Shown piece after piece: positions 14,220-64,000 of a DNA stretch of 64,000 nt. The position numbers and the translations under genes are program-made. The notes beneath the pieces are model-generated. The model made no database searches, was not told the DNA's origin, and worked only from the letters and a program-made list of their open reading frames with translations. Positions within the stretch are counted from its first letter, which is position 1. The number at the start of each line of letters is the position of its first letter. The DNA is taken from contig CALXPZ010000006.1 in assembly GCA_944390375.1 (NCBI GenBank), forward strand, positions 1,587 through 65,586, written 5' to 3'. The stretch is from an uncultured Alphaproteobacteria bacterium (lineage in GTDB: Bacteria; Pseudomonadota; Alphaproteobacteria; RF32; CAG-239).

Positions 14220-14225
14220 TTTTTC

Positions 14226-47588: not shown

Positions 47589-47667
47589 AAAAATAAAAAA
47601 TTAAAAATAGATAATACACGATTATTATACACGATTAGCGATCAATATCAACAAAATTTTGACAAAA

Positions 47668-48906
47668 TCACTCGTCCGGCAACAGTACGGAAAAAACCGA
47701 CCCTTTTCCCGGTGTACTTCTGACTTCGATGCGGCCGCCGTGCCGTTCGACAATTTCCTGTGCGATGGAAAGCCCGAGCCCGGTTCCCGCCGTCTGCCGG
47801 CTGCGGTTTTTATCCGCCCGGTAAAAACGTTCGAAAATATGGGAAATATCTTCCTCGTCAATCCCGATCCCGTGATCTTCAACCTCAATCCGACAGTTCT
47901 TATCCTCGCGGAAAGCACGGACAATCACTTCCGAATGTTCCGGGCTGTATTTAATGGCATTATCCAAAAAAATAAGCAGCAGTCGTCGGATCATTTCCTT
48001 GTCGGCTTTCACCAAAACCTCTTTTCCGCAACCGTTGATAAGCCGGATATCCTTGTGGCTGTTCATATGGGCAAGGGTTCCTTCAATCAACCCGTTAACA
48101 TCAAACAGCTCGCGGTGTAAAATCTGTTGTTTGTTGTCCGCCCGCGCCAGTTCCAGCAAATTTCCTATTAAAGCGGACATACCGAGCACTTCTTCTTTCA
48201 TACCGGCCACAAGCGGTTGTTTGGGATCCGTCATTTCCATCAATTCTATCGAAGACAGCAAAACGGCAAGCGGCGTTCTCAGTTCATGCGACGCATCGGC
48301 AACAAAGCGTTTTTGCCGTTCCAGCAGCACCACCAACGGAGAAATTGTTCTGTCCGCAAGAAAGTTGCCGCAGCCTCTGGCAACCGCCAGCATCAAAAGC
48401 AGTGCGCCGAGCCAGATATAAATATAGCGCCCGGAAAGCAGTTTTAGGGGCGTAACATTCACCAGAATGACCACTTTTCCTTTAGCTGTCCGCCCCGATA
48501 TCATATAAAACTGCCACAAATTATTTTCCTCATCGCGCAGAGAAAAAAACTCCAGCCCGTTTCCCGGTACGGCTTGTACCGCTTTTTCCAAACAAAGTTC
48601 CGCTATTTTCTCGTTTTTTGGATGTTCGGCAAAAACAGGTCTATTGTCTTCAAACCAATAAGCATAGCTGTAAATAGATGAAATATCCGAGACCATCACC
48701 GTTTCTCTGGGGCGGGAAATTTTTCCCATCCCGAAACCTTCCGCTTCCCTGATCTCGGCTGTCAAAGCATCGCGCATTGTATCGGCAATTACTTTATGCA
48801 CCATATATTTGCACATGGTAAAACCGCCGATGACAAAAAACAACAACATTACCGCAATAATGGCCGTGTATTTGTAAGACAGACGGCGCCGTACTTTGTC
48901 AATCAC
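47668..48906 (-). CDS. sensor histidine kinase (two TM helices, HisKA + HATPase_c)
   Basis: H-box ASHELRTPLAV, N-box LLLIFLDNAIKYS, G-boxes VEDHGIGIDEED and GTGLGLSIAQEIV. Confidence 0.85.
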   Translation of the reverse strand: MIDKVRRRLSYKYTAIIAVMLLFFVIGGFTMCKYMVHKVIADTMRDALTAEIREAEGFGMGKISRPRETVMVSDISSIYSYAYWFEDNRPVFAEHPKNEKIAELCLEKAVQAVPGNGLEFFSLRDEENNLWQFYMISGRTAKGKVVILVNVTPLKLLSGRYIYIWLGALLLMLAVARGCGNFLADRTISPLVVLLERQKRFVADASHELRTPLAVLLSSIELMEMTDPKQPLVAGMKEEVLGMSALIGNLLELARADNKQQILHRELFDVNGLIEGTLAHMNSHKDIRLINGCGKEVLVKADKEMIRRLLLIFLDNAIKYSPEHSEVIVRAFREDKNCRIEVEDHGIGIDEEDISHIFERFYRADKNRSRQTAGTGLGLSIAQEIVERHGGRIEVRSTPGKGSVFSVLLPDE

Positions 48907-49598
48907 CGTTCAATCTCCAGAACATAACCGATTCCCTTCACCAGCTTGATTTGCACCTTATCCGTCACTTTTCTGATTTTACGTCGCAAAATGTAAATAT
49001 AAGCATCAAGGCTTGCTGGGCTGATGTCCGGATTGTCTGACCAAACCTTGTCCATAATCGTTTCCCTTAAGATAATCTGCCCGCTGTTGACAAACAAAAT
49101 CTGAAAGACCTCCTGCTCCCGCCGGCTCAGCTTCAACTCATGATCTCCCAGACGCAACACTCCCGTTTTGGCGTTCATCTCAATGCCGAATTTTGTATAA
49201 ACTCCGTCAACGAAAGGCCTGCCTTTACGGCGGCCGAGCGCGTTGACCCGGGCGATCAACACCTTGTTTTCAAACGGCTTAACCAGATAATCGTCGGCGC
49301 CGCTCTCAAGCCCCGCCACGCAATCATCGGTTCCGTCCCTGGCCGTCAAAAAAATGATTCCCCCCTGATAATTATATTTACGCGGATTGCGCAGCAGCCT
49401 GCAAATTTCAATCCCGCTGATCTCGGGCAACATCCAGTCGAGAATAATGACGTCATAGCTGCTGGCCGCGGCTTCATCAATCAGATCCAGTGCCTCTTTT
49501 CCGTCTTTTGCCCATTCGACTTCAAATCCCGAAAGTTCCAACAGGCTTTTGACCAGCCCGCCCAGTTTGAGGTCATCTTCTGCCAATAACAATCTCAT
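48903..49598 (-). CDS. OmpR/PhoB-family response regulator
   Basis: Receiver domain (MRLLLAEDD, DVIILDWMLP with the phospho-acceptor Asp, FLTARD) and a winged-helix C-terminus (LRRKIRK). Overlaps the kinase gene by 4 bp. Confidence 0.9.
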   Translation of the reverse strand: MRLLLAEDDLKLGGLVKSLLELSGFEVEWAKDGKEALDLIDEAAASSYDVIILDWMLPEISGIEICRLLRNPRKYNYQGGIIFLTARDGTDDCVAGLESGADDYLVKPFENKVLIARVNALGRRKGRPFVDGVYTKFGIEMNAKTGVLRLGDHELKLSRREQEVFQILFVNSGQIILRETIMDKVWSDNPDISPASLDAYIYILRRKIRKVTDKVQIKLVKGIGYVLEIER

Positions 49599-50023
49599 TT
49601 TTATTTTCCTTATGTTATCAGTCTAAAAACTATATTTTGATCTGGCAAGACAAATCTTTATGTTATAAATCTTAAAAAAATTCTTTTCTTTCAGATTTTT
49701 TTCAGATTGAACCTTTATTTCTTGAAAACGAAATAAAGCAGTAAAACATAGTCGCCTGTAGTTTCTAGGTGTTTTTGAGCCCGAAAGGCATGTTTTTCGG
49801 GCTCAAAAGTAAAAGTTAATCCTGTTTGTTTTTCATAATCCATACCGGAATATCCGGATATTTTTATAAATGTCTCTTTTGGTTAATGCACAATTTGTGC
49901 TTTTTTTTGATCCGGGCAACCCCCGGATCAAAAATTTTAAACTTTTTCCCGCACAAAAAATCTTCCTCCTGCTCTTTTCTTTGCCTGATCTGACGTTATA
50001 TCAAAAAAGAAAGGAGAAATAAA

Positions 50024-50689
50024 ATGAACCCGCGTTATATTTACGCCAAACAATCTAAAGTTATGCGTGCTTTGTGGAATTTTCTGACCAGTCCGACCGG
50101 CGCTTTTCTGATTGCCGTCTCTGCCATTCTCATCGGTTATTACCAATTCGACATCAGCCGCCCGATTTTAAAATACACCAGCGAAACAACGGAGATATCT
50201 TCCGCCTCCGGCAGCGACGATTTCAAAATTCACATCAACGGCAAAGATTATCCGAAAATATATAAAACGGAACTGACGCTGACCAATACCGGCGAAGATG
50301 CCCTGCCCGGCAACGATGTCTCGGCCATCGGTCACGACCCGATACGCATTCCCATTCCCCCGCGGGTCAAAGTACTCTACTACGGCATCAGCAGCAGCGG
50401 AACCTCCGAAGATGTCGCCGCCAAACTGATCCCCGTTGATGACGCTCTGGTCATCACTTTCAACTACCTCAACCCCGACAACCAGATTACCGTTCACATG
50501 TACAGCGAAGACGATTACGACAACTACGAAATAAAAGGATCCGCCGTTAACGTCAACCAGATAACACAGGCTTGGAGTCCCGAACAAACCCGCCGTTTTA
50601 TTATCCGCATCGCTCTCGGCATCATCCTTTTCTATACCCTGTTTATATACCTCTATGTCCGGCGGCATAAACCGTTGCCCCGGATATAA
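50024..50689 (+). CDS. hypothetical membrane protein (221 aa; TM helix at each end)
   Basis: No family assigned. Confidence 0.4.
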   Translation: MNPRYIYAKQSKVMRALWNFLTSPTGAFLIAVSAILIGYYQFDISRPILKYTSETTEISSASGSDDFKIHINGKDYPKIYKTELTLTNTGEDALPGNDVSAIGHDPIRIPIPPRVKVLYYGISSSGTSEDVAAKLIPVDDALVITFNYLNPDNQITVHMYSEDDYDNYEIKGSAVNVNQITQAWSPEQTRRFIIRIALGIILFYTLFIYLYVRRHKPLPRI

Positions 50690-50736
50690 AAAACTTCCCG
50701 TATTTACGGGAAGTTTTTTCATGCCCGATACAATTT

Positions 50737-51345
50737 TTATAAATCGGCAACCACGGAAACGGAAACGATCTCGTCCGGCTCGCTGACCATACCGTTGGCG
50801 CCGGTACCGCGTTTGATCATATCGACATATTCCATCCCGGAAGTAACCTCACCCCACACCGTATATTGGCCGTTAAGCCACGGTGCCTCGGCAAAGCAAA
50901 TAAAAAACTGGCTGTCTGCGGAATCCAGATCCATCGCGCGGGCCATCGAAACCGTGCCTCTCAGATGCGGCCGGCGGTTAAATTCCGCTTTCAGTTTTTT
51001 GCCGCTGCCGCCGGTTCCGGTACCGTAAGGACACCCGGTCTGAGCCATAAAGCCGTCAATTACCCGGTGAAACTTCAAGCCGTTGTAAAAACCGGCCCGC
51101 ACCAACTCCTTGATCCGTGCGACATGGTTCGGCGCGTCTTCGGGAAACATCTCAATCACGACATCGCCGTTTTTCAGTTTCAAGACCAAAGCATTTTCGG
51201 CATCTTTAACCAGATATTTGGCTTTTTCTTTTTTTGAACGCGACGGGCTTTTGGTCAGTTTTTTCGTTTCCGCGGATTTCAACCCTTTGGTTTCAGCCTT
51301 GGCCAGTTTCGCCGTTTCTGCTTTTTTCAACAATTCAGCCATCAT
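50737..51345 (-). CDS. cyclophilin-type peptidyl-prolyl cis-trans isomerase with a lysine-rich N-terminal extension
   Basis: Cyclophilin core (FHRVIDGFMAQTGCPYGTGTGGSG, VSMARA, SQFFICF, WLNGQYTVWGEVTSGMEYVDMI) preceded by about 45 aa of AETAKLAKAETKGLKSAETKKLTKSPSRSKKEKA. Confidence 0.85.
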   Translation of the reverse strand: MMAELLKKAETAKLAKAETKGLKSAETKKLTKSPSRSKKEKAKYLVKDAENALVLKLKNGDVVIEMFPEDAPNHVARIKELVRAGFYNGLKFHRVIDGFMAQTGCPYGTGTGGSGKKLKAEFNRRPHLRGTVSMARAMDLDSADSQFFICFAEAPWLNGQYTVWGEVTSGMEYVDMIKRGTGANGMVSEPDEIVSVSVVADL

Positions 51346-51405
51346 ACAATCTCCTTAAATTACTTCTGTACATAATATAGGAACCAGCCGACGGAATAGC
51401 AAGCT

Positions 51406-52383
51406 TTACTTCAGAACATAATCAACCCGTTCGGACCATGTCAGCCCTTTGGGATAGTAGTTGCGAATTCTTTTTAACAAATCACGCAACCCGCAGCCGT
51501 TGGCAATTTGGATTGCCAACCCCGGCCGGGCATTCAGTTCCAGCATCATCGGCCCGCGGTATTTGTCAAGCACGATATCCGCCCCCAGATACCCCAATCC
51601 GGTCATTTCATATCCTTTGGCCGCAATTTCCAGATGCTCCCGCCAAAAAGGAACCTGCAATTTCATCAGATCGGCGCCGGTGTCAGGATGAAAACTGATC
51701 GGCCGGTTATGCGATACCGCAGCCACCGCACACCCGCTCTTAATGTCAATGCCGACACCTACCGCGCCTTGATGCAGGTTTGCCCTACCACCCGATTCTT
51801 TGGTTGCCAGACGCATCATCGCCATGGCCGGAAACCCTTGGTAGACAATCACCCGCACATCGGGAATCCCCTGATAACTGAAATCTTGGAATTGGTTTGA
51901 AAAGTGAACCATCTCTTCCAGCACGGCCACGTCATACTTTCCGCCGAGGGAATAAAGTCCGCTCAAAATATTGGAAATATGCTGATAGACCTCGTGATAA
52001 GACAGCACTTTTTCCGACGCGGTTACAAACTGTTTTTCATCATAGCTCTTAATCACCAGCACACCTTTGCCGCCGCTGCCGTGTGCCGGCTTGATCACAA
52101 ATTCCTTATAACCTTCCACCAGCGACAAAAAACGATCCACTTCATTTTGCACATCTATCACACCGATCAAATGCGGCGTATTGATTCCCACGCCGGCGGC
52201 CAGTTTTTTGGTTTGTACTTTGTCATCAACCAGCGGATAAAGCCGTCTGCGGTTACTTTTGGCAATAATTTCATAATTGCGCCGGTTCATACCGAGCACA
52301 CCGGCCTCTCTCAACTGCGACGGCGTGGCAAAATGTTTCAAAAAATCAAACATGTTTTTCGTCCTTTTTCGCCAGCGGAGCAA
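51406..52383 (-). CDS. RimK-family alpha-L-glutamate ligase-like ATP-grasp protein (alternative start at MFDFLKH, 52353)
   Basis: ATP-grasp motifs (FVIKPAHGSGGKGVLVI, MLELNARPGLAIQ). N-terminal GVLGMNRRNYEII is typical of the 'alpha-L-glutamate ligase-like' family that co-occurs with the two downstream genes. Confidence 0.75.
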   Translation of the reverse strand: MLRWRKRTKNMFDFLKHFATPSQLREAGVLGMNRRNYEIIAKSNRRRLYPLVDDKVQTKKLAAGVGINTPHLIGVIDVQNEVDRFLSLVEGYKEFVIKPAHGSGGKGVLVIKSYDEKQFVTASEKVLSYHEVYQHISNILSGLYSLGGKYDVAVLEEMVHFSNQFQDFSYQGIPDVRVIVYQGFPAMAMMRLATKESGGRANLHQGAVGVGIDIKSGCAVAAVSHNRPISFHPDTGADLMKLQVPFWREHLEIAAKGYEMTGLGYLGADIVLDKYRGPMMLELNARPGLAIQIANGCGLRDLLKRIRNYYPKGLTWSERVDYVLK

Positions 52384-53887
52384 AACGTGTCAGTTCCGTC
52401 AGGCGGTAACCGGTATAAGTGCCGAGCAGCATAACGATAAACAAAATAACCAGATTGAATTCGTTAAACGCAAACATAATATGGCGAATATATTCATTGA
52501 CGATTACAAAATAGGTAATAATCGCCACCAACACGCTGTAAACGATTTCTTTGGTCGCATTGGCCGCTCCGTCTTCCTCCCAGGTAATGGATGCCCGTTC
52601 GATAACCCAAGCCATAATGATAATCGGGAAAGAAAGAGCCGATACGGCAATATTCCATTTCCATTGATAACCGATGACAGACAGCACCTGCATAATCAGA
52701 ATAACAAAAATAACCACCGCCGAAATCCGCGGAACCAGCAACAGATTAAGCTTTGACAACCCGGCTCTGATCAGCAGACCGGCGCCCAAAATCAGCGAAA
52801 AGCAAATCAGTCCCGGCCAAAATCCGGTCTTAACCAACGACATGGCGATCAGCATCGGTGTGAACGTCCCCATGGTCTGGATACCGACCACATTGCGCAT
52901 CAGTACGACGACCAAAATTGCAAGCGGAAAAATCATCAACCATTTCAATGTGTTCTGTTCATTAAGCGGCAGATTGTAAATTGAATAATTAAACAAGCTG
53001 CGGCTGTGTGAAAGCTCCGCACGATGTCCGGCCATCCGGAATGAAGAACGGATCGACTTCATAACCGAAAACTTGGTAACGGAATCCGTACCGCCTTCCA
53101 CATCGACCAGAGAGTTTCCGCCGCGCTGAAAGATAATAAAATTGCTCGGCACGCCTTTTTTACCGGTTTCCAGATTATAAATCTTCCACATTCCGTCAAT
53201 ATAAGCCTCGAGCATCACATCGGGCATAAGCGTTTTTTTGCCTTCTGTCAGCTTTATGCCTCGCACCATCCGCGCCGAGATGTCTTTTAAGGCCAGCAAA
53301 TCAATCACGGCCTGAGCCGTTGCCTTGTCGGTGCGGGGAGAAGGAACAAAAGACTGCACCGTTTCGTCCGGCGGATTTTGATTAAACAGGGCAATCACCT
53401 GCTGGATCGGATCGCCTTCCCGCTGTGCGGCCATTTCCAACAGTTGTCCGGCAACAACGGAAGTTTGCTCATCCATAATTGGTTTCTGCGGCGCCGAAGG
53501 CTTTTCGGCCGGTGTTTTTCCCCTGCTGTCAACATTATCGTAAAGGAGCACACGGTAGTAGATATCCTGCAGCTTGCTTTTCGGTTTGGAGGTAATTTCT
53601 ATTCGTTCCGTTTTCTTTTCTATTTTATATTTCGGCGCCACCGCATCTTCGTCCAACACCTTAAAACCGGCCGTAGACAGCGGTCTGGCCATGGACACGC
53701 GGATATTGCTCCCGTTTGGCATAAAACTGACATGTTCCTCCACCGTCCACACGTCCGTCGTTTGCTTAGGGGTAAAATTAAATCCCCAATAACGAATTTT
53801 ATAATAAGCGGCATAGCCTGCAAATGCTATTGACAGAACCAAACCGACGGTTAAAAAAAATCTCACGGATTTCAATTTGTTTAACAT
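52346..53887 (-). CDS. inactive transglutaminase-like domain fused to a C-terminal 7TM domain (513 aa)
   Basis: N-terminal TM/signal anchor, a periplasmic transglutaminase-like region, and a C-terminal block of about 7 TM helices (LMIFPLAILVVVLM...). This is the known partner of RimK-like ligases. Confidence 0.65.
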   Translation of the reverse strand: MLNKLKSVRFFLTVGLVLSIAFAGYAAYYKIRYWGFNFTPKQTTDVWTVEEHVSFMPNGSNIRVSMARPLSTAGFKVLDEDAVAPKYKIEKKTERIEITSKPKSKLQDIYYRVLLYDNVDSRGKTPAEKPSAPQKPIMDEQTSVVAGQLLEMAAQREGDPIQQVIALFNQNPPDETVQSFVPSPRTDKATAQAVIDLLALKDISARMVRGIKLTEGKKTLMPDVMLEAYIDGMWKIYNLETGKKGVPSNFIIFQRGGNSLVDVEGGTDSVTKFSVMKSIRSSFRMAGHRAELSHSRSLFNYSIYNLPLNEQNTLKWLMIFPLAILVVVLMRNVVGIQTMGTFTPMLIAMSLVKTGFWPGLICFSLILGAGLLIRAGLSKLNLLLVPRISAVVIFVILIMQVLSVIGYQWKWNIAVSALSFPIIIMAWVIERASITWEEDGAANATKEIVYSVLVAIITYFVIVNEYIRHIMFAFNEFNLVILFIVMLLGTYTGYRLTELTRFAPLAKKDEKHV

Positions 53888-53907
53888 GAAAGCCTCGCCA
53901 TAATCTT

Positions 53908-54483
53908 TTAACGCAGCGTATTGCTCAAAGAAGCATCAACCACAAACCGCCCGGTCAGAATATTGCGGCCGATCAGTCCCTGATAATTAAAACGGTCGCG
54001 TTTTGCCAGCGAAAACTCCGCTTTCACGATTTCCTCACCCATTTTAATATCCATAACGACGACGATACGTTCTTCGTTACCGTTGATTCGCTTAACGGTC
54101 GGCTGACGTTTTATTTTTTTCTCAAAATGGTATTTTTCGCCGGTTTCCCGATTAACCAGATCAAAGCCGACCCATTTTTCACCGTCGCGTTCAAACGGGC
54201 GAATGTCATCGGCATCAACCGAAGATGTTTCGGCTCCGGTATCTATCCGCGATGAAAACGGAGATTTCATCGGCAGAAAATAAATCGGCTCCACTTCCCC
54301 GATCACCTTAAGCGGCACTTTCAACTGTCGTTGTTCGGATTTTTCGTTGGCGGTTTCAGGCATTCTGACCTCCACTCCCGGCACGATTGCAGGACGAATA
54401 CTGCCCTGATTTTGGCATGCGGCACACAGGCACAACAAAAAAAGTGCCGTCATTTTTTTTACAATATCAGCCATGTTTCTCAT
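53908..54483 (-). CDS. retropepsin-like aspartic peptidase ('ATP-dependent zinc protease' COG4067 family), secreted/lipoprotein
   Basis: Signal peptide with Cys (FLLCLCAAC). Retropepsin signature IDTGAETSSV. 191 aa. Confidence 0.7.
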   Translation of the reverse strand: MRNMADIVKKMTALFLLCLCAACQNQGSIRPAIVPGVEVRMPETANEKSEQRQLKVPLKVIGEVEPIYFLPMKSPFSSRIDTGAETSSVDADDIRPFERDGEKWVGFDLVNRETGEKYHFEKKIKRQPTVKRINGNEERIVVVMDIKMGEEIVKAEFSLAKRDRFNYQGLIGRNILTGRFVVDASLSNTLR

Positions 54484-54636
54484 ATCTTGTTAAAACTGTT
54501 TCTTATTTATCTTTAAATGCAGAAAAAAGTAAAGTAAAAAAAATTCCGCTGTGATCACTTTTTTAATGACTTTTGTCCTAAAAAAAGTTATATTGTACAA
54601 AAATAAGAATAAAAATCAGAATCCGAAGAGAAGACC

Positions 54637-55644
54637 ATGCCGCAGACCTCAAACAAAGCCGCTAAAATATTAAAAATAAAAGTCCGCAAAAATATTTATC
54701 GGATGAAAAAATATCTGCTCGGACTGACAACGCTCGGCGCCGTGATTTCCGCGCCTGCCGGCCTGCACGGACAGGAAGCGGGCAACTTCGGGCAAACTCA
54801 GGAACAAACCGCTGCCGGCAAAAAAATGTCCGCAGAAAAAACCGGCGACAAACTGCTGGCCTATAACCGCATGGTTGAAGTCAACCTCGGACAGGAAATC
54901 GAAAACCGGGCGGATTGGTTCGTCGACGAGTTCGTGAAAGCCTCTTCCAAACATCTGACAGCGCTAAAAAAGGCCACCGCTCGTGGACAAAAAACAAGTT
55001 ATGTCGAAAACAATTTTTTTGACATTGTTTACCCGTCCGGTCATCTCTCCGGTCGCAACAACTACTGCATCACGGCCATCAACCGGGCGTTGATCGATGC
55101 CAATGTATTCGGCGACCTCAACGGCGCCCTGCCCGAATACAAAAGCGAAGGAGGCAACGCCGTCGAATGCCGGCGTTTTGTCAGCTACCTTGAAAGAAAA
55201 GGCTACCGCGACTGCATCCGCCACGGTGCAATCAACATAAAAAATCTGCAAATCGGAGACATTGTCATGACACCCCGCGGAGGCGGACGCTATCACGCCA
55301 CCATCTACATCGGCAACGGCGTTGTTCGCAGTTTTAACAACGACGGAGAATGGTTGCTGAAAAAACGCAGCGGCATTGTCATAAAAACCAAAGCCATCGC
55401 CGAAAAAGCAATTACGCAGAAACTTGAAAAACAAAAGCTGGTCAATCTGCAAAAAGGCAAAAGGCAAATTGTTCCCTTGCAAAAAGCTCAAAAAATCATG
55501 CAGTTTTTATACGCCGGGCGTAATGTCGGCGACAGAATGGTGGCCTTACTGCTGGACAACGACCGTGGCAATTTGCTGGCTTCCGCCTCCATTCCGGCAG
55601 AAAAATTTTCACGCCGGCAGCTGACGGAAATCCGCGGTCGGTAA
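54637..55644 (+). CDS. secreted hypothetical protein, possibly a papain-fold (NlpC/P60 / CHAP-like) hydrolase
   Basis: Signal peptide (MKKYLLGLTTLGAVISAPAGLHG from an internal Met). The Cys in NNYCITAIN and the His in GGGRYHATIYIGNG have the spacing of a Cys/His papain-fold dyad. Tentative. Confidence 0.35.
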   Translation: MPQTSNKAAKILKIKVRKNIYRMKKYLLGLTTLGAVISAPAGLHGQEAGNFGQTQEQTAAGKKMSAEKTGDKLLAYNRMVEVNLGQEIENRADWFVDEFVKASSKHLTALKKATARGQKTSYVENNFFDIVYPSGHLSGRNNYCITAINRALIDANVFGDLNGALPEYKSEGGNAVECRRFVSYLERKGYRDCIRHGAINIKNLQIGDIVMTPRGGGRYHATIYIGNGVVRSFNNDGEWLLKKRSGIVIKTKAIAEKAITQKLEKQKLVNLQKGKRQIVPLQKAQKIMQFLYAGRNVGDRMVALLLDNDRGNLLASASIPAEKFSRRQLTEIRGR

Positions 55645-55648
55645 CCGC

Positions 55649-56875
55649 CTAAAAAAAGAAACTGGCGCGCAGGCTGATAACCGTACCGTAATCGGATTTC
55701 GTGTTCAACGCCGGATCGATATAAAACTGGATATCCGGCGTAATTGTCATCCATTTTGAAATACCGAAGGCATAATAAGCCTCAACCACTTTTTCGCTGT
55801 CATGGGAAAGCTTTTCACCGACGGCCGCCTCGTCAATTTTGTTATAGGCAAAGGCCAGTCCGGCCTGATCCAGCGGATTGCGGTCAAACGGATCGTTGTA
55901 CACCAGGCCGAGCACCCACGATTGTTCAATTTCAGCAATCGAACCGGAAACACCGTTTACCCGTGCAAACACGGCCAGTTTTTTGCCGATATTCTGACTC
56001 AGATTGACCGACCAGCCGTTGGTTGTCTGCGGCTGTTCTTTGACCCGGGGCTGATTATAAATCAAAACCGAATACCGCCCGGCTCCCAGTCCTTTGATCA
56101 TCGGAGTATAGGCCAAATAACCGAAAGTGGCGTAATGTTCTTCGCTCAAATCATTGACACGGACGCTTATCCCGTCGACATTAGTGGCATCCTGCGCACC
56201 GAAAGCAAACGACCATTCGTCAGTAGGGGTAATTTGAGCATAAGCGCCGACACCTGCCGTCGAATAAGTCGAACTGCCGTTTTGCGACAAAGCATAGTTG
56301 ATAAAATTGACCTGTTGGTTAGAATTATACGGTCCGCCGTCAAAGTTGGAAAACGAAAACTGACCGGCGGCAACCGTCAGCCATTTCAGGGAACCGCCGA
56401 ACTGATAATCATAATACAATTCGCTGAACGAATTTGCCTTATCATCATTATCGTTAATTTCCGTTGCCACACCGATATTGCTGCCGACCCTGGCCGCATC
56501 CGAACCGCCGTAACGGGCAACCGTGTAGGCAAAATTAAGCGTACCTGTACCATGGTCATTGTCAAACATTGTCCAGGTAAAACTTGGAGAAATCAACGTC
56601 TGATAAGCGGTTTTCCGTCCGTTCGGCGCTCCCCGCTGCGGCATATAGGAAATATCAACGGCATAATCAAAACCGTATTCTTTGCTCAGATAATTTTTAA
56701 AAGCGGTATAATCATCGCCGAAAGTGCTGAACGTAAAATTGCGCCGACGGGAAGCCTCCTCCACCCTTCGCTCCGCCCCTTGCGGCAAATCATCGCTGTC
56801 CGCACGGGCTTCCAAAGAATGGCTGATGACCAACGCACCCCAAAAAAACGGCAGTACATAATTTCTGATTTTCAT
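55649..56875 (-). CDS. aaxA: OprB-family (carbohydrate-selective-type) outer-membrane porin, AaxA-like
   Basis: Signal peptide, amphipathic beta-strand pattern throughout, C-terminal ...ISLRASFFF with a terminal Phe. OprB-like family features. Divergently adjacent to the arginine decarboxylase/antiporter pair. Confidence 0.65.
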   Translation of the reverse strand: MKIRNYVLPFFWGALVISHSLEARADSDDLPQGAERRVEEASRRRNFTFSTFGDDYTAFKNYLSKEYGFDYAVDISYMPQRGAPNGRKTAYQTLISPSFTWTMFDNDHGTGTLNFAYTVARYGGSDAARVGSNIGVATEINDNDDKANSFSELYYDYQFGGSLKWLTVAAGQFSFSNFDGGPYNSNQQVNFINYALSQNGSSTYSTAGVGAYAQITPTDEWSFAFGAQDATNVDGISVRVNDLSEEHYATFGYLAYTPMIKGLGAGRYSVLIYNQPRVKEQPQTTNGWSVNLSQNIGKKLAVFARVNGVSGSIAEIEQSWVLGLVYNDPFDRNPLDQAGLAFAYNKIDEAAVGEKLSHDSEKVVEAYYAFGISKWMTITPDIQFYIDPALNTKSDYGTVISLRASFFF

Positions 56876-57050
56876 TTTTCCCTCTCATCTGCAATTACCG
56901 ATGTCTCTTATTTATATACGGAAAATCAAAGATAAAGGACGTTAGTTCGTTTTTATATCTTTAGTATAGTCCGTGCTTGAAAATACACCCGCACCGATTA
57001 ACTCATAGGCTGTAAAAAGCAAAATATATTTCAATCAAAGGAGAAAAATT

Positions 57051-57632
57051 ATGACCGAAGGCGTTCGTTACCCGACATTAGCATTTCAAACCGGCGGAGC
57101 CGGACAGGCCGACGAGGGCATTCCCCCGCAACCGTTTGAAACTTTTTGTTACGATTCCGCCCTGTTGCAGGCCAAAATCGAAAATTTTAACGTCATCCCT
57201 TACACGTCGGTTTTGCCCAAAGAACTCTACGGCAACATTGTTCCGGTCGACAAAGTTGTCAACCAGTTTAAGCACGGTGCGGTGCTGGAAGTCATCATGG
57301 CTGGCAACGGCGCCAATCGCGACCAGCACAAGGCCATCGCCACCGGCGTCGGCATTTGCTGGGGCAAAAACAAAAAAGGCGAATTGATCGGCGGCTGGGC
57401 GGCCGAATATGTCGAATATTTCGACACCTACATTGACGACGATATTGCCAAAACCCATTGCGAAATGTGGCTGAACCGCTCTTTGAACCACGAACTGCAA
57501 ATCCGCGGCGTTGAAAAACACAGCGAATTTCAGCTCTTCCACAATTATATCAATATCACGCAGCAGTTTGGCTATTGCCTTACCTGTCTTGGTTTCCTTA
57601 ACTTTGAACACGCGGAACCGGCCAGGGTATAA
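57051..57632 (+). CDS. aaxB: pyruvoyl-dependent arginine decarboxylase (PvlArgDC), AaxB-like
   Basis: The 193-aa protein aligns nearly end to end with chlamydial AaxB as recalled: [62 protein letters not shown]...[10 protein letters not shown]...[25 protein letters not shown]...[29 protein letters not shown]. The predicted self-cleavage site Thr52-Ser53 is conserved in PYT|SVLP. Confidence 0.85.
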
Positions 57633-57773
57633 CCGGCTTCGATGAAGACATCCGGAACATTTGATTTCCGGCTGTTTTGAGAAGCCGGTACCGAACGTGA
57701 GGCGGAACAATCTTTTTTCAAACGGTTGTTTCGCCTCCTTTCGTAAAATAAATATCACCAAAGGATAAAAACA

Positions 57774-59249
57774 ATGACAAAAAAAAACAAACCTTCTGTA
57801 ACAGAAACATCGACCGCCACCGGTAACGGCCTCGGTGTTTTGGCCTTGGCCGCAATCGTTGTCAGCTCCATGATCGGCGGCGGTATCTATTCCCTGCCGC
57901 AAAACATGGCCGCCGGCGCCTCGGCGGGAGCCGTTCTGCTTTCCTGGGTTATTACCGGTTTCGGTGTTTATTTTATTGCCAACACCTTCCGCGTCCTTTC
58001 GGTTGCCATGCCGGATCTGACCGCCGGCATTTATATGTACAGTCGAGAAGGTTTCGGCCCCTATGTCGGCTTTACCATCGGCTGGTCATACTGGCTTTGC
58101 CAGATCTGCGGCAATGTCGGCTACGCCGTTATCACCATGGATGCGCTCAACTACTTTTTCCCGTCTCACTTTGCAGGCGGCAACAACCTTGCCTCCGTCA
58201 TCGGCGGATCAATTTTGATCTGGGGCTTCAACTTTCTGATTTTGCGCGGCATCAAACAGGCCACTCTCGTCAACACCATCGGCACCGTTGCCAAAATCGT
58301 GCCGCTGATACTGTTTATCATCATTCTGATCTTTGTTTTCCACATGGACAGATTCGATTTTAACTTCTGGGGAGAAAAGACAAAATCACTCGGCGGGCTC
58401 GAACAACAGATAAAAAGCACAATGCTGGTTACTTTATGGGCTTTTATCGGCATTGAAGGCGCGGTCGTTATGTCCAAGCACGCCAAAAGCCCGCAGACCG
58501 TCGGCAGAGCAACGCTGCTTGGCTTTATCGGTTGTCTGTCCATCTACATTCTGCTCTCATTGTTACCTTTCGGCTACATGGATCAGACCGAACTGGCTGC
58601 CGTTGCCAACCCGTCCACGGCCGGTATTTTGGAAAAAGTGATCGGCAAACCGGGAGCCTGGCTGATGAACATCGGTCTGCTGATTTCTGTTTTATCCAGC
58701 TGGCTTGCCTGGACCATGATCACTGCCCAAATTCCGCAGGCCGCGGCCGAAAACGGAACTTTTCCGAAAGAATTTGCCAAAGAAAACGAATATCAGGCGC
58801 CTTCCGTTTCGCTGTGGATTACAAGCGCCCTGATGCAGGCAATGATTTTGCTTGTTTATTTTTCAAACAACGCATGGAACACCATGCTCAGCATCACCAG
58901 CGTCATGGTTTTGCCGGCATATTTCTCCAGTTGCGCCTACCTATGGAAAATCTGCGAAGACGGAGAATATCCCGCCCACTCCGACATCAAACGCTCTACC
59001 GCGCTTTTCTCGGCAATTATCGGCTCGTTTTACGCCCTTTGGCTGATTTATGCAGCCGGCCTCAACTATCTGCTGATGGCCGTCATCTTTATGGCTGCCG
59101 GTATCCCGGTTTTTATCTGGGCGCGCAAACAATCCGCACCGGACGAAAACGCTTTTACCATCGGCGAAAAGGCTTTTGCCGGGTTGATGATCGTAATCGC
59201 CTTGTGGGCAATTTACGCTTTCTCCCGCGGCATTGTCAGCCTGAACTGA
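57774..59249 (+). CDS. aaxC: APC-family arginine/agmatine (ArcD/AdiC/AaxC-like) antiporter
   Basis: 12-TM amino-acid/polyamine antiporter (GNGLGVLALAAIVVSSMIGGGIYSLPQNMA..., FGPYVGFTIGWSYWL). 491 aa. Immediately downstream of aaxB. Confidence 0.8.
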   Translation: MTKKNKPSVTETSTATGNGLGVLALAAIVVSSMIGGGIYSLPQNMAAGASAGAVLLSWVITGFGVYFIANTFRVLSVAMPDLTAGIYMYSREGFGPYVGFTIGWSYWLCQICGNVGYAVITMDALNYFFPSHFAGGNNLASVIGGSILIWGFNFLILRGIKQATLVNTIGTVAKIVPLILFIIILIFVFHMDRFDFNFWGEKTKSLGGLEQQIKSTMLVTLWAFIGIEGAVVMSKHAKSPQTVGRATLLGFIGCLSIYILLSLLPFGYMDQTELAAVANPSTAGILEKVIGKPGAWLMNIGLLISVLSSWLAWTMITAQIPQAAAENGTFPKEFAKENEYQAPSVSLWITSALMQAMILLVYFSNNAWNTMLSITSVMVLPAYFSSCAYLWKICEDGEYPAHSDIKRSTALFSAIIGSFYALWLIYAAGLNYLLMAVIFMAAGIPVFIWARKQSAPDENAFTIGEKAFAGLMIVIALWAIYAFSRGIVSLN

Positions 59250-59271
59250 CAACACTTTATGATAAACTTTC

Positions 59272-59297
59272 GGGAGCCCTCCGCGGCTCCTTTTTTT
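59272..59297 (+). terminator. rho-independent terminator after aaxC
   Basis: GGGAGCC-CTCCGC-GGCTCC followed by TTTTTTTC. Confidence 0.55.
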
Positions 59298-59397
59298 CAT
59301 TACCTTTCCCTCTTTGCCAGACAACTGGAAACATGACGACCTAAAAAAAGGGAAACGGTCTTAAACCGCTTCCCTCGTAAAAATTTTCCTTAAGTGA

Positions 59398-59892
59398 TCA
59401 ATCGAGCAAACGCTTGAAATCAGAACCGTTTCCCCAGCCCTCCAGCTCAAAATGAGCAACCGCGGCAGAAAAGATATCCTGAAAATAAAATACCTTATTT
59501 TCGGCATTATAGTAGCGTTTATACAGGCGATAACGGCGATAATGGCTTATCCAATACCCAATTCCTTTCGCCCTTAGCTGTTTCATCCTTTCCCGGCAAC
59601 GTTTCAGAAAAGAAATTCTGGTTATAAAGAATCTTCTCATCCGATAATCCGGTTCAAAAACAACCGTTTCCTTCAGCAACACCCAGTCTATGTTCAAATC
59701 GGGATAAGAGGACAGCAAAGGAGGCGTTTCGAACGGATCTGCCGCTCCGCCCAAAGGATCCATGAATGAACGCAGACAAAGAAGCTGCCGGATGCATTCA
59801 GAAAACTTGGAAACAAAGCGCTCTTTGTTCTTTTCTTCCAAAAGGGAGCCGATTTCTTCCAGCTCGCTTAAAAAAAATATACATTGTCTCAT
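59398..59892 (-). CDS. hypothetical protein (164 aa) downstream of and probably co-transcribed with the 807-aa secreted protein
   Basis: ORF 60 bp downstream on the same strand. Basic Tyr/Arg-rich C-terminal half. No family assigned. Confidence 0.35.
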   Translation of the reverse strand: MRQCIFFLSELEEIGSLLEEKNKERFVSKFSECIRQLLCLRSFMDPLGGAADPFETPPLLSSYPDLNIDWVLLKETVVFEPDYRMRRFFITRISFLKRCRERMKQLRAKGIGYWISHYRRYRLYKRYYNAENKVFYFQDIFSAAVAHFELEGWGNGSDFKRLLD

Positions 59893-59951
59893 AATTGATT
59901 AAAAATTTGTTTTACCGGGTTCAGCATACGCCCGTTAGACAAATTTGTCAA

Positions 59952-62375
59952 TCAATTATTATCCGCTTTTTTATCCGCAAGCTCGCCTGCCGTCAGGTTA
60001 ATCCGGAAAAACGTATTATGTCCGTCGTTATTCTCCGGTGCGTTCAATCCTTCCGGCACCAGCAGGACAATACTGCTGCCGCCGGTCAGACCGCCCGGCA
60101 GTTTTGGAAACTGTTTCAGCATAACATAGCTTCGGTAACCGAAAGGCCCTCTTTCCTCATCGCCCAAAAGACAGCTGTATCCGGCGGCCTTGATTTTGTC
60201 CTTGTCGCTTGCAACTATCGGACGGATAAATCCGTCCTTTTCCAGTTGCTGCAATCCGGCATCTGCCGGCGCAATATCGGGTTTTATAAACTCACCGTCA
60301 ATAACCTGCGGATTATATTCATAAAATTTGTCGTCCACTTCTTCGCCGATAACCGGTTTATCAAGCAAACGGATATCTTTTATCCCGAGGTTGAGCGTGC
60401 GCACGGCATCAACGATTTCATCCTTGCCGTAAAACTTTTGCAGGCAGACATCATTTCCCTCATGCAAATAATTTCCGTTGCGAACTTTGGTTTGCACATC
60501 GGGTTTCATGCCTCTTAACATCTGCTCATAATGCCCGCCGACGATAACCGCCTGCAAATCCGTTGCCGGTGTTGTATAAATATCCCAAACAACCGGCTCA
60601 TAAGCGCTTAAGAACAAGACCACGCATTTCCCGGGCTGGTTAATCTTAACCTGGGTATTAAAGGTTTCATTGTCATCGCTCAGATAAACACCCTTCATGG
60701 CCTGCCCTTGTCGGTAAGCGCTGTAAGCATAAACCTCGCAGTCGGGCTTGATGTCTTTCAGTTGGCACAGAACCGGGGCCGCGGTTTCCGTCTCCTTCAG
60801 ATAATTTTGGTTTTTCAGCCAGCTGACGGCATCTTCCATAGTTTCTTTTGCACAAGTTTTGGTGCGGCAATTTCTCAATCGGAGCACGGCATAAGTCTGA
60901 TATGCGTTGATCATATCCGGTTTTTCGTCCCGGTAGCGCTCAAACGTTTCATCCAGCCGGTTTTTTTGTGCCCGCAGGCCGTCATCGGCGCAAATCACTT
61001 TATCAACCACGCCTCTCGGCCGGTCGCAATCCGGCAGCAAAGGCAGGTCGTCTTTTTCTACCGGCAAAATCAGAAACGAATGTGAAAATATATCAACTTT
61101 GGAAGCTTCGCTGCCGCCAAACACGGGATCCAGTTTCATATTGAGCGGCGCTTTCTGGCCACCGCCGATAAATACGAATACGGGCGCGTTGCTTCCGCGG
61201 GGCAATTCCCTGATATCCTCCAGTAAAATATATCCGCCTTTCAACAGCATATCTTCCATCTGAAAGAAATCGCGGTAATCGGAACGCCGCCATACAAATT
61301 TGTTATTATCAAGATTAATGATGCCGTTTTTCTTAAAGCGCTCTATATCCCGTTGCGTCAGACGACGAACCTTGCCGTCGGCAAGCAGCTTTTCCCAGCC
61401 CTCTTCCGCCGGCGGCAATACGGTTACGGCCGACGCTCCTTTTGTATTTTCCGGATAATAACGATAGTCGCCGATCGGCGCATTGTCGCCGATTTTTCCG
61501 CCGAACACATAATTCCGCCGTTCAGCGGCTATTCCCAGTTTATTCAGGAAACTGCTCCCCTGTTTCTGCTCCAGATCCGACGTCGCACGCAGACAGTTTT
61601 CGGCAGTTTTTAACAATTCTCCCCGATGATGCACCTCAACCTTGGCCGTATCGGGATAACCACGCACCAGCTGCGGATAATCGCCGCCGGCATAGATCAT
61701 TCGCAAATCGGTCTGATCCGTCGTCAGGATATCCCAAATCTGCGGATTAGGGGATGACAGAAAAAGATAAACACACTTACCGGGACGGTTGATGCGGACT
61801 TTTTCCTCATAAGTATTACGTTCCGCCGACAGCAAAATATCGGTATTCGTTTTATTTTGAGAAGGTTTGTTATATACGTAAATCTCGCAATTTTCGGAAA
61901 GTTCGGGCAACGAGCATCCCTTTTGGCGGGAAAAGCCCTGCAAACCGGCTAAGGTTTCGCCGTAAACTTCGGCCATACATTTTTCCGAACGGCAGTTCCG
62001 CCCCTTATCCCTGACCCGGCGGATAAAAATATGTTTTTCATCAGCGTCTTTTCTGGCCTCCTCAAGCCGCCGGTTGAGATTTTCCATTTTTTGCGTCAGT
62101 TCTTTGCGTTCTTTTTTTATAACCACGTCATCACCGGTGGCTTTGGCCATTTTTTCTTCCAACAGAGAAAGTTCCCGTCTCAGATTTTCCGGCGGCTGCT
62201 GCAACTCGTTTTCTATTTTTTGGATTTGGTTGTTCTGCGTTTTCAGCGAACTGTTCAGACAAACATAAGCATCATTCAGATATTCCAGATTCGGCTGGTT
62301 GCAGTCAACCGCGGCATATGCGCCGCAACACCATCCGAACCCCGTCAGCAAAGCTAAAATCCGTATATTCTTCAT
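59952..62375 (-). CDS. large secreted protein (807 aa) with an N-terminal coiled-coil and two tandem paralogous modules of about 300 aa
   Basis: Signal peptide MKNIRILALLTGFGWCCGAYAA and a coiled-coil (IQKIENELQQ...EKMAKATGDDVVIKKERKELTQKMENLNRRLEEARKD). Internal duplication: VRINRPGKCVYLFLSSPNPQIWDILTTDQTDLRMIYAGGDYPQLVRG in module 1 versus VKINQPGKCVVLFLSAYEPVVWDIYTTPATDLQAVIVGGHYEQMLRG in module 2. Confidence 0.55.
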   Translation of the reverse strand: MKNIRILALLTGFGWCCGAYAAVDCNQPNLEYLNDAYVCLNSSLKTQNNQIQKIENELQQPPENLRRELSLLEEKMAKATGDDVVIKKERKELTQKMENLNRRLEEARKDADEKHIFIRRVRDKGRNCRSEKCMAEVYGETLAGLQGFSRQKGCSLPELSENCEIYVYNKPSQNKTNTDILLSAERNTYEEKVRINRPGKCVYLFLSSPNPQIWDILTTDQTDLRMIYAGGDYPQLVRGYPDTAKVEVHHRGELLKTAENCLRATSDLEQKQGSSFLNKLGIAAERRNYVFGGKIGDNAPIGDYRYYPENTKGASAVTVLPPAEEGWEKLLADGKVRRLTQRDIERFKKNGIINLDNNKFVWRRSDYRDFFQMEDMLLKGGYILLEDIRELPRGSNAPVFVFIGGGQKAPLNMKLDPVFGGSEASKVDIFSHSFLILPVEKDDLPLLPDCDRPRGVVDKVICADDGLRAQKNRLDETFERYRDEKPDMINAYQTYAVLRLRNCRTKTCAKETMEDAVSWLKNQNYLKETETAAPVLCQLKDIKPDCEVYAYSAYRQGQAMKGVYLSDDNETFNTQVKINQPGKCVVLFLSAYEPVVWDIYTTPATDLQAVIVGGHYEQMLRGMKPDVQTKVRNGNYLHEGNDVCLQKFYGKDEIVDAVRTLNLGIKDIRLLDKPVIGEEVDDKFYEYNPQVIDGEFIKPDIAPADAGLQQLEKDGFIRPIVASDKDKIKAAGYSCLLGDEERGPFGYRSYVMLKQFPKLPGGLTGGSSIVLLVPEGLNAPENNDGHNTFFRINLTAGELADKKADNN

Positions 62376-62520
62376 CGGTAGTCCTCCAACATAATATCTT
62401 AGATTTTAAAACAGTTTTTCATCAAATGCCAACAAAAAAAATTATTTTTCACCACACCGGGAATACTGCTTGCGGTCTTGTCTTTAATTGGTTAAAATTA
62501 CCCGCCGAAAAGGAAAAGAT

Positions 62521-63822
62521 ATGCAGGAAACAATACCGGAATTTACCGTCAGCGAAATTTCGTTCGCCGTCAAACACACTTTGGAAAACACCTTTGCACG
62601 GGTTCGCGTGAGAGGGGAAATCTTCGGCTGCAAGCGCGCCGATTCAGGCCACTATTACCTTTCGCTCAAAGACGAAAACGCCAATCTTGCCGCCGTCTGC
62701 TGGAAAGGCATTGCTGCCGGCCTTGTCTTCAAGCCGGAAGACGGACTGGAAGTTGTCGCCACCGGCCGGATCACCGCTTTTGCCGGCAAGAGCAGCTACC
62801 AGTTGGTTATTGAACGGATGGAAGCCGCCGGCGCCGGTGCTTTGCTCAAATTGCTGGAGGAACGCAAACAAAAGTTTGCCGCCGAAGGCCTGTTTGACCC
62901 GGCGCATAAAAAACAAATTCCTTTTTTACCGCGGGTTATCGGCGTGGTAACCAGCCCATCGGGCGCTGTCATCCGTGATATCATCCACCGCGTTTCCGAC
63001 CGTTTTCCGTCCCGCCTCATCGTCTGGCCGACGCTTGTCCAGGGCGAAGGCGCGGCCGCGCAGATTGCCTCCGCAGTTGAGGGATTCAACCGTCTGCCGG
63101 TCGACGGCGCCGTTCCCCGCCCCGACGTATTGATCGTCGCCCGCGGCGGCGGATCGCTCGAAGACCTGTGGTGCTTTAACGAGGAGATCGTCATCCGCGC
63201 CGTCTACAATTCGGAAATTCCCGTTATTTCGGCAGTCGGGCACGAAACCGACACCATGCTGATAGACTATGTTTCCGACCTGCGCGCCCCCACCCCGACC
63301 GGTGCCGCCGAATTTGCCGTACCCGTCAAAAGCGAATTGGAAGCGCGTCTGCTCACCCTGCAAAGCCGCCTGCTTAACGCCGGCACCCGCTATCTGCAGG
63401 AACGCCGCAGCCTGCTTGACGGCCTCAAACGGGGCATTCCCGACTTAACTCAAATCCTTGCCGATAACATACAAAAGCTTGACGACCGCTCGGAACGGCT
63501 GCGCCTTGCTTTCGGCAATTATCTGCAAAACCGGCAAAATCAGTTGAATTTAAGCGAAATTAAACCTTTTTACATTACCAATATACTGGAAAAAAAGAAC
63601 GAAACTCTGCAAAACCTCGCACTCCGGCTGGAATCCGTTTCCGTTACGGCCGTGCTGAAGCGGGGCTTTGCCTGGATCAAAAACGGAAGGGGACACACCG
63701 TTTGCAACGCGGATACGGCGCGCAAAAACACCAGTCTGGAAATCGTGTTTGCCGACGGCTCTGTTAAAACCCGGCCGATAGTGAGGAAAAATGAATTACA
63801 AGGCGATTTGTTTGACAATTAG
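62521..63822 (+). CDS. xseA: exodeoxyribonuclease VII large subunit (start at MQETIPEF)
   Basis: N-terminal OB fold (LSEISFAVKHTLENTFARVRVRGEI...HYYLSLKDE), catalytic core (VIGVVTSPSGAVIRDIIHRVSDRFP, DVLIVARGGGSLEDLWCFN), and a coiled-coil C-terminus. Confidence 0.85.
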   Translation: MQETIPEFTVSEISFAVKHTLENTFARVRVRGEIFGCKRADSGHYYLSLKDENANLAAVCWKGIAAGLVFKPEDGLEVVATGRITAFAGKSSYQLVIERMEAAGAGALLKLLEERKQKFAAEGLFDPAHKKQIPFLPRVIGVVTSPSGAVIRDIIHRVSDRFPSRLIVWPTLVQGEGAAAQIASAVEGFNRLPVDGAVPRPDVLIVARGGGSLEDLWCFNEEIVIRAVYNSEIPVISAVGHETDTMLIDYVSDLRAPTPTGAAEFAVPVKSELEARLLTLQSRLLNAGTRYLQERRSLLDGLKRGIPDLTQILADNIQKLDDRSERLRLAFGNYLQNRQNQLNLSEIKPFYITNILEKKNETLQNLALRLESVSVTAVLKRGFAWIKNGRGHTVCNADTARKNTSLEIVFADGSVKTRPIVRKNELQGDLFDN

Positions 63823-64000
63823 TCTTTTTGCGGCCGCCCCGGCAGCGGCTCTGGAACTGTGCGGCGAGCTCCGGCAGGGGGAAATCCTCGTCGGCAACGT
63901 CGGCGACAACGCCGAGGCGGTCGTTTTCAACCAAAAAACATACCCCGTAACCGAAGACGGCTATTTCATCCTGGCTCTGCCGCGCGATCAAAAAGCCAAA
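63791..64000 (+). CDS. partial ORF, secreted hypothetical protein (runs off the window edge)
   Basis: ATG at 63791 gives MNYKAICLTISLFAAAPAAALELCGELRQGEILVGNV...: a signal peptide followed by an unassigned domain. Overlaps the xseA stop. Confidence 0.35.
   Translation, partial: MNYKAICLTISLFAAAPAAALELCGELRQGEILVGNVGDNAEAVVFNQKTYPVTEDGYFILALPRDQKAK

Follow-up and report, generated by a model that had tools for sequence, protein, structure and literature searches.

In a 64,000-nucleotide stretch of DNA from an uncultured Alphaproteobacteria bacterium (assembly GCA_944390375.1, contig CALXPZ010000006.1), which is called the window here, an outer-membrane porin gene, a pyruvoyl-dependent arginine decarboxylase gene and an amino acid antiporter gene lie side by side, and the locus is quite probably a native, vertically inherited AAX-type system for arginine:agmatine exchange, homologous, component by component, to the chlamydial system AaxABC. 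All three genes have chlamydial homologues, the catalytic residues of the decarboxylase are conserved, the decarboxylase and antiporter genes (aaxB and aaxC) are tightly linked, the composition of the locus is native, and its genes stand in a sister relation to those of the Chlamydiae. The trio had been proposed before from the letters of the DNA alone (hereafter the sequence-only reading), and the three open reading frames (ORFs) of 408, 193 and 491 codons are found in the ORF list where that reading had placed them. The genes and the residues that matter for the argument are the following:

55649-56875, minus strand: AaxA-like OprB-family outer-membrane porin of 408 aa with an N-terminal signal-peptide-like segment, matching the OprB and AaxA models
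57051-57632, plus strand: aaxB, proenzyme of an AaxB-type pyruvoyl-dependent arginine decarboxylase, 193 aa, matching PvlArgDC
57204-57209, plus strand: Thr52 and Ser53 codons of aaxB, located by alignment of the cleavage site
57405-57407, plus strand: Glu119 codon of aaxB, aligned with the catalytic Glu109 of M. jannaschii
57774-59249, plus strand: aaxC, AaxC-type antiporter of the basic amino acid/polyamine (APA) family, 491 aa, a predicted arginine:agmatine exchanger

The decarboxylase matches the Pfam family PvlArgDC (PF01862) with 87.1 bits against a gathering cut-off of 22.7, and it shares 75% identity and 86% similarity with AaxB of Chlamydia pneumoniae over the full length, and 72% identity with that of Chlamydia felis. 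The cleavage-site residues are Y51-T52-S53-V54, of which Y51, T52 and S53, and likewise Glu119, co-align with both chlamydial enzymes. A phmmer search of the 193-residue protein against PDB sequences returned nothing relevant, and a profile of 18 homologues was required to reach the M. jannaschii enzyme (PDB 1N2M), on which Ser53 of the window protein falls on the pyruvoyl-precursor Ser53 and Glu119 on the catalytic Glu109. Both residues are unchanged across the alignment of these 18 diverse homologues, and the identification of the ORF as a pyruvoyl-dependent arginine decarboxylase with a Thr52-Ser53 site, as the sequence-only reading had it, holds. The archaeal equivalog models TIGR00286 and NF009064 give the protein 30.6 and 31.4 bits against cut-offs of 107 and 207; since the genuine AaxB of C. 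felis misses these cut-offs as well, the low scores are no argument against its identity as AaxB. M. jannaschii PdaD (PDB 1N2M/1MT1) belongs to the same Pfam family and keeps the equivalents of the serine and the glutamate, but it is very distant, is cleaved at a Ser-Ser instead of a Thr-Ser bond, and has a biosynthetic role without an antiporter or porin partner.

Searched against a library of 1.84 billion proteins, AaxB finds 155 representative clusters at E≤1e-3, and beyond the alphaproteobacterial and chlamydial group the next full-length relatives are at most 54-55% identical; two of these relatives have no antiporter or porin neighbours. Databases already name the alphaproteobacterial homologues automatically as "pyruvoyl-dependent arginine decarboxylase". 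Many distant bacterial homologues of the family carry N-terminal signal-peptide-like extensions or sit inside proteins of 390-480 aa (P0134, P0135, P0137, P0139, P0159, P0164; P0136, P0138, P0143), which hints at secreted or periplasmic pyruvoyl decarboxylases.

The antiporter reaches 198.2 bits with the Pfam family AA_permease_2 (cut-off 27) and passes the NCBIfam model for basic amino acid/polyamine antiporters, TIGR00905, with 558.6 bits against 409. It is 60% identical to AaxC of C. pneumoniae over 483 aa and 60% identical to that of C. felis over approximately 480 aa, while the AdiC model NF007929 gives it 161.8 bits, far below the cut-off of 574. As a calibration, the genuine AaxB and AaxC of C. 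felis were scored in the same way, and their NCBIfam score pattern is that of the two window proteins.

The functions of AaxA, AaxB and AaxC have been shown experimentally in C. pneumoniae (Giles & Graham 2007 and Smith & Graham 2008, summarised in PMC2720952), with assays of acid-optimum arginine decarboxylation, of arginine:agmatine exchange and of porin-enhanced arginine uptake; AaxC is described there as an arginine:agmatine antiporter. In Chlamydia, aaxA and aaxBC share one transcript, and their three products are described as acting jointly; the system has also been tested in an Escherichia coli strain without adiAYC (PMC2720952). For the window, the substrate, the stoichiometry of exchange, the physiological role and the participation of the porin are predicted by analogy. 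L-arginine would enter across the outer membrane, for which the AaxA-like porin is a plausible route, and AaxC would swap external arginine for internal agmatine. The AaxB proenzyme would cleave itself between Thr52 and Ser53 to generate the pyruvoyl group, and the mature enzyme would then decarboxylate arginine, using up one cytoplasmic proton. In an acidic, arginine-containing gut, such a cycle would raise the cytoplasmic pH and could add to the membrane potential, so that a role in acid tolerance or energy conservation may be speculated for a reduced gut symbiont.

The same three components make up the chlamydial system (CPn1033/1032/1031 in C. pneumoniae), in which AaxB is of the same length class. 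The gene-for-gene correspondence claimed in the sequence-only reading is confirmed by identities of 75, 60 and 37% to the C. pneumoniae proteins and by the match to the AaxA model; leaving aside one AaxB from Cetobacterium, the alphaproteobacterial proteins with these identities are the closest non-chlamydial AAX relatives found here. Chlamydial hosts are obligate intracellular bacteria, whereas the host of the window belongs to a free-standing gut alphaproteobacterial lineage. The gene order differs too: chlamydial aaxA is the first gene of a co-directional, co-transcribed aaxA-aaxB-aaxC operon, while the porin gene of the window is divergent from aaxB and, in most relatives, unlinked. This inversion had been noticed before, and it is borne out by four chlamydial-type loci, in all of which the order is a co-directional aaxA-aaxB-aaxC. 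The spacer between aaxB and aaxC is 141 bp in the window, as measured from the ORF coordinates, and approximately 10 bp in Chlamydia. Judged from their sequences, AaxB and AaxC of the window are members of the chlamydial-type AAX system, with the porin as a more distant homologue and with a different architecture. The AdiA/AdiC system of E. coli follows the same logic, the coupling of arginine decarboxylation to arginine:agmatine antiport; AdiA, however, is a pyridoxal phosphate-dependent enzyme unrelated to the pyruvoyl enzyme AaxB, AdiC is only distantly related to the window antiporter, and no dedicated porin belongs to the system.

The host range of the locus was surveyed in one genome per GTDB species with an AaxB profile built from an alignment of eight sequences. 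A relative is encoded in 546 genomes, and the best 80 of them (83-96% AaxB identity) were examined as loci; these are metagenome-assembled genomes (MAGs) obtained from the guts of humans, mice, rabbits, ruminants and other hosts, and almost all bear an alphaproteobacterial label, such as "Azospirillum sp. 51_20" or "Acetobacter sp. 46_36". Two of them carry the labels Bacteroidaceae and Lachnospiraceae, yet show alphaproteobacterial synteny, and are therefore read as binning errors. The part of the window from 45651 to 64000 is 99.4% identical at the DNA level to contig CASFHE010000036.1 of GCA_949294405.1, and the alphaproteobacterial character that had been assigned to the surrounding genome is thus confirmed. 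We take the best 80 MAGs to be members of the GTDB order RF32, family CAG-239. RF32 and Rs-D84 are described as Alphaproteobacteria of gut and rumen whose metabolism is reduced and which probably live as symbionts (PMC13196213, PMC7676259).

Within these 80 loci aaxB and aaxC are adjacent in 79, and the lone exception is interrupted by a contig end. The flanking synteny is conserved within the window's clade. In the window the flanks consist of housekeeping or conserved genes, namely those for cyclophilin, ATP-grasp, 7TM-transglutaminase and RimB-like protease proteins, two genes without known function and xseA (Pfam); other clades have aaxBC with lptD-surA-ksgA on one side and pyk (pyruvate kinase) on the other, or amid different housekeeping genes. 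A search of the window for an empty ksgA|pyk site found none. The guanine-cytosine (GC) content of the porin gene, aaxB and aaxC is 0.487, 0.509 and 0.515, respectively, compared with 0.494±0.033 for 45 other genes of the window, and both GC at third codon positions (GC3) and codon-usage distance lie within approximately 1.3 standard deviations of the other genes. In the alphaproteobacterial and the chlamydial group alike, the aax genes match the GC content of the host. No tRNA, insertion sequence (IS) element, integrase, Rfam or mobile-element signal is found near the locus, the only tRNAs of the window being at 25 kb and 39 kb. The pair aaxBC is thus native and widely conserved, and is not a recently acquired island.

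These data bear on the view that the trio was lately acquired from a chlamydia as a genomic island, for instance inside amoebae. High AaxB and AaxC identity between the phyla and the treatment of aaxABC as chlamydial in published work (PMC2720952) would fit such an origin; but with the typical composition of the trio, the conservation of pair and flanks across the lineage, the lack of tRNA, IS element or integrase nearby, a separate alphaproteobacterial clade in 99-100% of bootstraps that is never nested among chlamydial proteins, and related genomes that come from vertebrate gut and rumen, it is highly improbable. Insertion of foreign DNA into this genome, as the sequence-only reading had envisaged, is contradicted by the same observations: in the window genome the locus is common, vertically inherited and of typical composition.

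Several points weigh against the reading of the locus as an AAX system. The functions of the alphaproteobacterial AAX proteins are predicted from their sequences. The model for arginine-ornithine antiporters (ArcD), TIGR03810, gives the window AaxC 506 bits, below its cut-off of 591 and nearly as high as the TIGR00905 score. The main functional caveat is a Cetobacterium locus in which an AaxB-type gene, whose product is approximately 80% identical to the window AaxB, stands beside genes for agmatine deiminase and N-carbamoylputrescine amidase. The porin remains below the equivalog cut-off of the AaxA model (301 against 600 bits), and most relatives have it apart from aaxBC, next to an unrelated gene cluster. 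Finally, the trees presented below are neighbour-joining trees only (own script, Kimura distances), and their alphaproteobacterial members are the 80 genomes most similar to the window.

The second and the third point could mean that AaxB makes agmatine for polyamines and that the transporter carries arginine/ornithine in the manner of ArcD, or another basic amino acid, an explanation that is improbable. In Cetobacterium sp. (GCA_014250685.1, JACFAJ010000006.1, 6001-11938), a decarboxylase that is 75-82% identical to alphaproteobacterial AaxB is followed by genes for PAD_porph (agmatine deiminase-type), CN_hydrolase, DDAH and a pyruvoyl histidine decarboxylase, with no AaxC or AaxA neighbour; the locus has a GC content of 31% and lies on a 1.3-Mb contig of a fusobacterial genome. 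This context implies that the same decarboxylase type can serve putrescine synthesis. The Cetobacterium and window proteins are both of the AaxB type, but the neighbours of the former suggest a biosynthetic or catabolic amine pathway, whereas those of the latter are an antiporter and a porin. The transporter scores, among them 450 bits on a histidine-histamine model, are also in line with another substrate; however, they fall below the curated cut-offs, and genuine C. felis AaxC gives the same pattern. The 60% identity to C. pneumoniae AaxC, the described arginine:agmatine antiporter (PMC2720952), argues for exchange as well. True plasmid ArcD genes adjoin genes for arginine deiminase, ornithine carbamoyltransferase or carbamate kinase, and no arcA, arcB or arcC is present at the locus; genes for agmatine deiminase, for an amidase or for the arginine deiminase pathway were found neither in the window nor at any of the alphaproteobacterial loci. 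Decarboxylase and antiporter are, moreover, paired almost universally, such a pairing being the hallmark of exchange systems, and arginine:agmatine exchange is the reading retained for aaxBC.

The porin is the least certain component. It scores 79.8 bits with the Pfam family OprB (cut-off 22.9), and its sole NCBIfam match is the chlamydial "porin AaxA" model NF051888 (301 bits, E 1.5e-89), with which C. felis AaxA reaches 804 bits, two divergent chlamydial-type porins 495 and 471, and an alphaproteobacterial porin unlinked to aaxBC 287. It is 37% identical to C. pneumoniae AaxA over 346 aa (E 6e-73) and 38% identical to C. felis AaxA over approximately 350 aa. By these scores it is a homologue of AaxA, which is its closest curated family, yet no equivalog by the criterion of NCBI. 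Its homologues, which the databases automatically name "carbohydrate porin", form 623 clusters, and among the matches listed the best 120 are proteins from alphaproteobacterial MAGs with 59-99% identity.

In 20 of the 80 related loci, which constitute the window's clade in the AaxB tree, the porin stands beside aaxBC with the same flanks; in 59 no porin gene was detected in the retrieved flanks of aaxBC, which reach up to 6 kb each way. In two more distant loci, L088 and L089, a porin (59-63% identical) stands beside a RimB-like/7TM-transglutaminase/ATP-grasp/PPIase cluster, and the 5-kb flanks that were retrieved contain no aaxBC; in the window that cluster lies on the far side of the porin from aaxBC. 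The AaxA-like porin is thus widespread in the lineage, while its adjacency to aaxBC is particular to the window's clade. The role of the porin in the AAX system is therefore uncertain, given both the score below the equivalog cut-off and the mostly unlinked position.

It could serve the lineage as its general OprB-type porin, or be partnered with the RimB-like cluster, and have come to lie beside aaxBC by an accident of rearrangement, which we regard as possible though rather unlikely. Its transcription, divergent and not as part of an operon, its position in L088 and L089 and the many aaxBC loci without a detected porin agree with this. On the other hand, AaxA is the sole curated match of linked and unlinked porins alike, chlamydial aaxA is co-transcribed and works with aaxBC (PMC2720952), and the numbers of homologue clusters, 623 for the porin and 687 for AaxB, are similar, which fits a shared distribution. 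The adjacency of the porin gene to aaxBC in the window's clade may be ancestral and retained, or may have arisen by secondary juxtaposition; since this clade is nested in a weakly resolved alphaproteobacterial part of the AaxB tree, the latter is slightly favoured. If the juxtaposition is secondary, the three components would have been united twice, which would argue for functional coupling.

The cluster next to the porin comprises genes for a RimB-like/Zn_protease (PF05618), a 7TM-transglutaminase (PF14400/PF14402), ATPgrasp_ST (PF14397) and a cyclophilin (50737-54483 in the window, 6364-10069 in L088, 6457-11255 in L089 and 12513-16139 in locus L090). It accompanies the porin across the lineage with or without aaxBC, and it could be a peptide-modification system with a functional link to the porin. 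In the window, the porin is separated from the RimB-like gene by an ORF of 335 aa (54637-55644, plus strand), whose only match is a sub-threshold one to NlpC/P60 (19.8 bits, cut-off 23). This ORF is poorly conserved (27-61% identity, with no tblastn match in loci L001 and L005), and in L088 and L089 the porin directly abuts the RimB-like gene.

The relationship between the alphaproteobacterial and the chlamydial genes was examined with an AaxB tree rooted on seven distant PvlArgDC outgroups and an AaxC tree rooted on six plasmid-borne APA antiporters. An approximate C. pneumoniae AaxB sequence served purely as bait, and the comparisons themselves use the retrieved database sequences P0309 (C. 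felis CF0286) and P0527 (C. pneumoniae). Chlamydial AaxB was neither among the top matches nor present as a separate representative at 50% identity, because it is too similar to the alphaproteobacterial proteins. Alphaproteobacterial and chlamydial sequences form a joint clade in 100% of the bootstraps for AaxB, the phylogeny that had been recommended as a check of the transfer idea, and in 96% for AaxC. Monophyly of the alphaproteobacterial sequences is found in 99-100% (AaxB) and 100% (AaxC), and that of the chlamydial ones in 73% and 76%, respectively. Where the chlamydial sequences are not monophyletic in the AaxB tree, the chlamydial-type locus L085 alone is most often the sister of the alphaproteobacterial sequences (17%); placement of the latter inside paraphyletic chlamydial lineages is a minority signal (20-27% of bootstraps), and chlamydial sequences are essentially never nested within the sampled alphaproteobacterial ones.

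The pairwise identities can be compared across the three proteins. For AaxB they are 68-78% between the alphaproteobacterial and chlamydial groups, 73-87% within the chlamydial type and 78-100% within the alphaproteobacterial group; for AaxC the corresponding values are 57-65%, 61-77% and 66-100%, and for the porin 31-38%, 42-57% and 50-98%. On these figures, the split between the two groups appears only slightly deeper than the divergence among chlamydial-type lineages. Because AaxB and AaxC are so similar between the phyla, horizontal transfer is the best explanation, presumably as one old event, in either direction or from a third-party donor, that predates the radiation of the sampled Alphaproteobacteria; the constant monophyly of the latter supports such an old transfer. 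Inter-phylum transfer, as suggested in the sequence-only reading, thus survives in the form of an old event and fails as a recent insertion into this genome. The proposed amoeba-associated setting finds no support, both lineages being animal-associated and the related genomes coming from vertebrate gut or rumen.

Since 2007-2009 the Chlamydia literature has treated aaxABC as a horizontal acquisition of the Chlamydiaceae ancestor, and the three genes are stated to have been gained after the split from the Parachlamydiaceae (PMC2720952); a stem alphaproteobacterium or some third party is thereby a candidate donor. The operon form of all chlamydial-type loci and the minority signal of paraphyly leave room for the reverse direction. 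One tentative scenario, which we consider somewhat doubtful, is that a stem member of the RF32 type or a relative, with clustered porin, decarboxylase and antiporter genes, donated the cassette to the ancestor of the Chlamydiaceae in an animal gut; if true, it would give both a date and a place to a key step by which chlamydiae adapted to vertebrate hosts. The Cetobacterium AaxB branches just outside the alphaproteobacterial crown, and its occurrence implies that the decarboxylase type has passed, more than once, between animal-associated bacteria, of which at least three phyla are involved.

Two of the chlamydial-type loci come from metagenomic contigs. L085 (Logan SRR25820369 contig; its protein P0327 is labelled "Victivallaceae bacterium") has a full Chlamydia-like synteny, aroA-K-C-B-DE | aaxABC | DAO ... 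mdh, pgi, and an AaxB that is only 73-77% identical to those of Chlamydia species, the longest contig with this AaxB (P0327) measuring 893 kb; it probably belongs to an unrecognised or mislabelled relative of the Chlamydiaceae. In L083 (ERR13998632 contig), aaxABC lies in a contig with 33% GC among genes without Pfam matches.

The system, its chemistry and its components are already known, and the result extends their distribution and history without adding a new mechanism. A 2021 survey recorded genes annotated as aaxB and aaxC in Bacteroidota of the gut and in further phyla, within histidine decarboxylase clusters (PMC8465708). The searchable literature, which did not cover the original phylogeny papers, contains no link of aax genes to the Alphaproteobacteria and no named bacterial partner lineage for the chlamydial acquisition; the description of the system as a trait of the Chlamydiae is accurate for published work and does not hold in current metagenome data. 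All three AAX components occur in a large, uncultured group of Alphaproteobacteria that live in vertebrate guts and have a reduced metabolism, so that the study of chlamydial evolution gains a concrete partner lineage and, with the animal gut, a plausible meeting place. For the poorly understood RF32-like gut bacteria, a trait of acid resistance or energy conservation is predicted, in which arginine from the diet or the host would be converted into the bioactive amine agmatine; agmatine production is thus predicted for an abundant uncultured gut group. The Cetobacterium case places the same decarboxylase type beside polyamine-pathway genes in another gut phylum.

The remaining features of the locus are listed here; those of the spacer come from the invariant columns in an alignment of 10 related loci, unless another source is given:

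50737-54483, minus strand: genes for the cyclophilin peptidyl-prolyl isomerase (PPIase), ATP-grasp protein (ATPgrasp_ST), 7TM-transglutaminase and RimB-like/Zn_protease (Pfam on window proteins)
56876-57050: divergent intergenic region of 175 bp between the porin gene and aaxB
approximately 56950-56969: conserved spacer block TTTTTATATCTTTAGTATAG (given also as TTTTTATATCTTTAGTATA)
56976-56983: conserved spacer block CTTGAAAA
56996-57006: conserved spacer block GATTAACTCAT (given also as GATTACCTCAT)
57040-57043, plus strand: strong GGAG ribosome-binding site of aaxB, read from the sequence
59272-59298, plus strand: terminator-like hairpin and T-run that close the aaxB-aaxC unit, GGGAGCCCTCCGCGGCTCCT followed by TTTTTTT
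59376-59348, minus strand: second hairpin, which ends the convergent orf164 (hairpin and terminator scan)

The conserved blocks in the spacer are a candidate regulatory site shared by the porin gene and aaxBC. A scan of the spacer with the sigma-70 consensus found no site, so a promoter or operator role is proposed from the conservation only. A sigma-32-like reading of CTTGAA...CCTCAT in the spacer was dropped, as the spacing of approximately 19 nt is too long.

Elsewhere in the window, an 807-aa protein (59952-62375, minus strand) without a Pfam match has an N-terminal signal-like segment and conserved cysteine motifs, and is made up of two internal repeats, each approximately 290 aa long and 29% identical to the other (E 1e-32). 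Its evolution is fast, with 40-62% identity between species whose AaxB proteins are 92-96% identical. An Rfam match to STnc490, an Hfq-binding small RNA, lies at 25121-25229 on the minus strand directly beside tRNA-Thr; it scores 57.1 bits against a gathering cut-off of 56 and is possibly spurious in an alphaproteobacterium. Low-GC patches are present at 3001-4000 (35.6%) and 38001-39000 (32.9%), compared with a window mean of 47.9%, and the second of them adjoins tRNA-Gln at 39068-39141.

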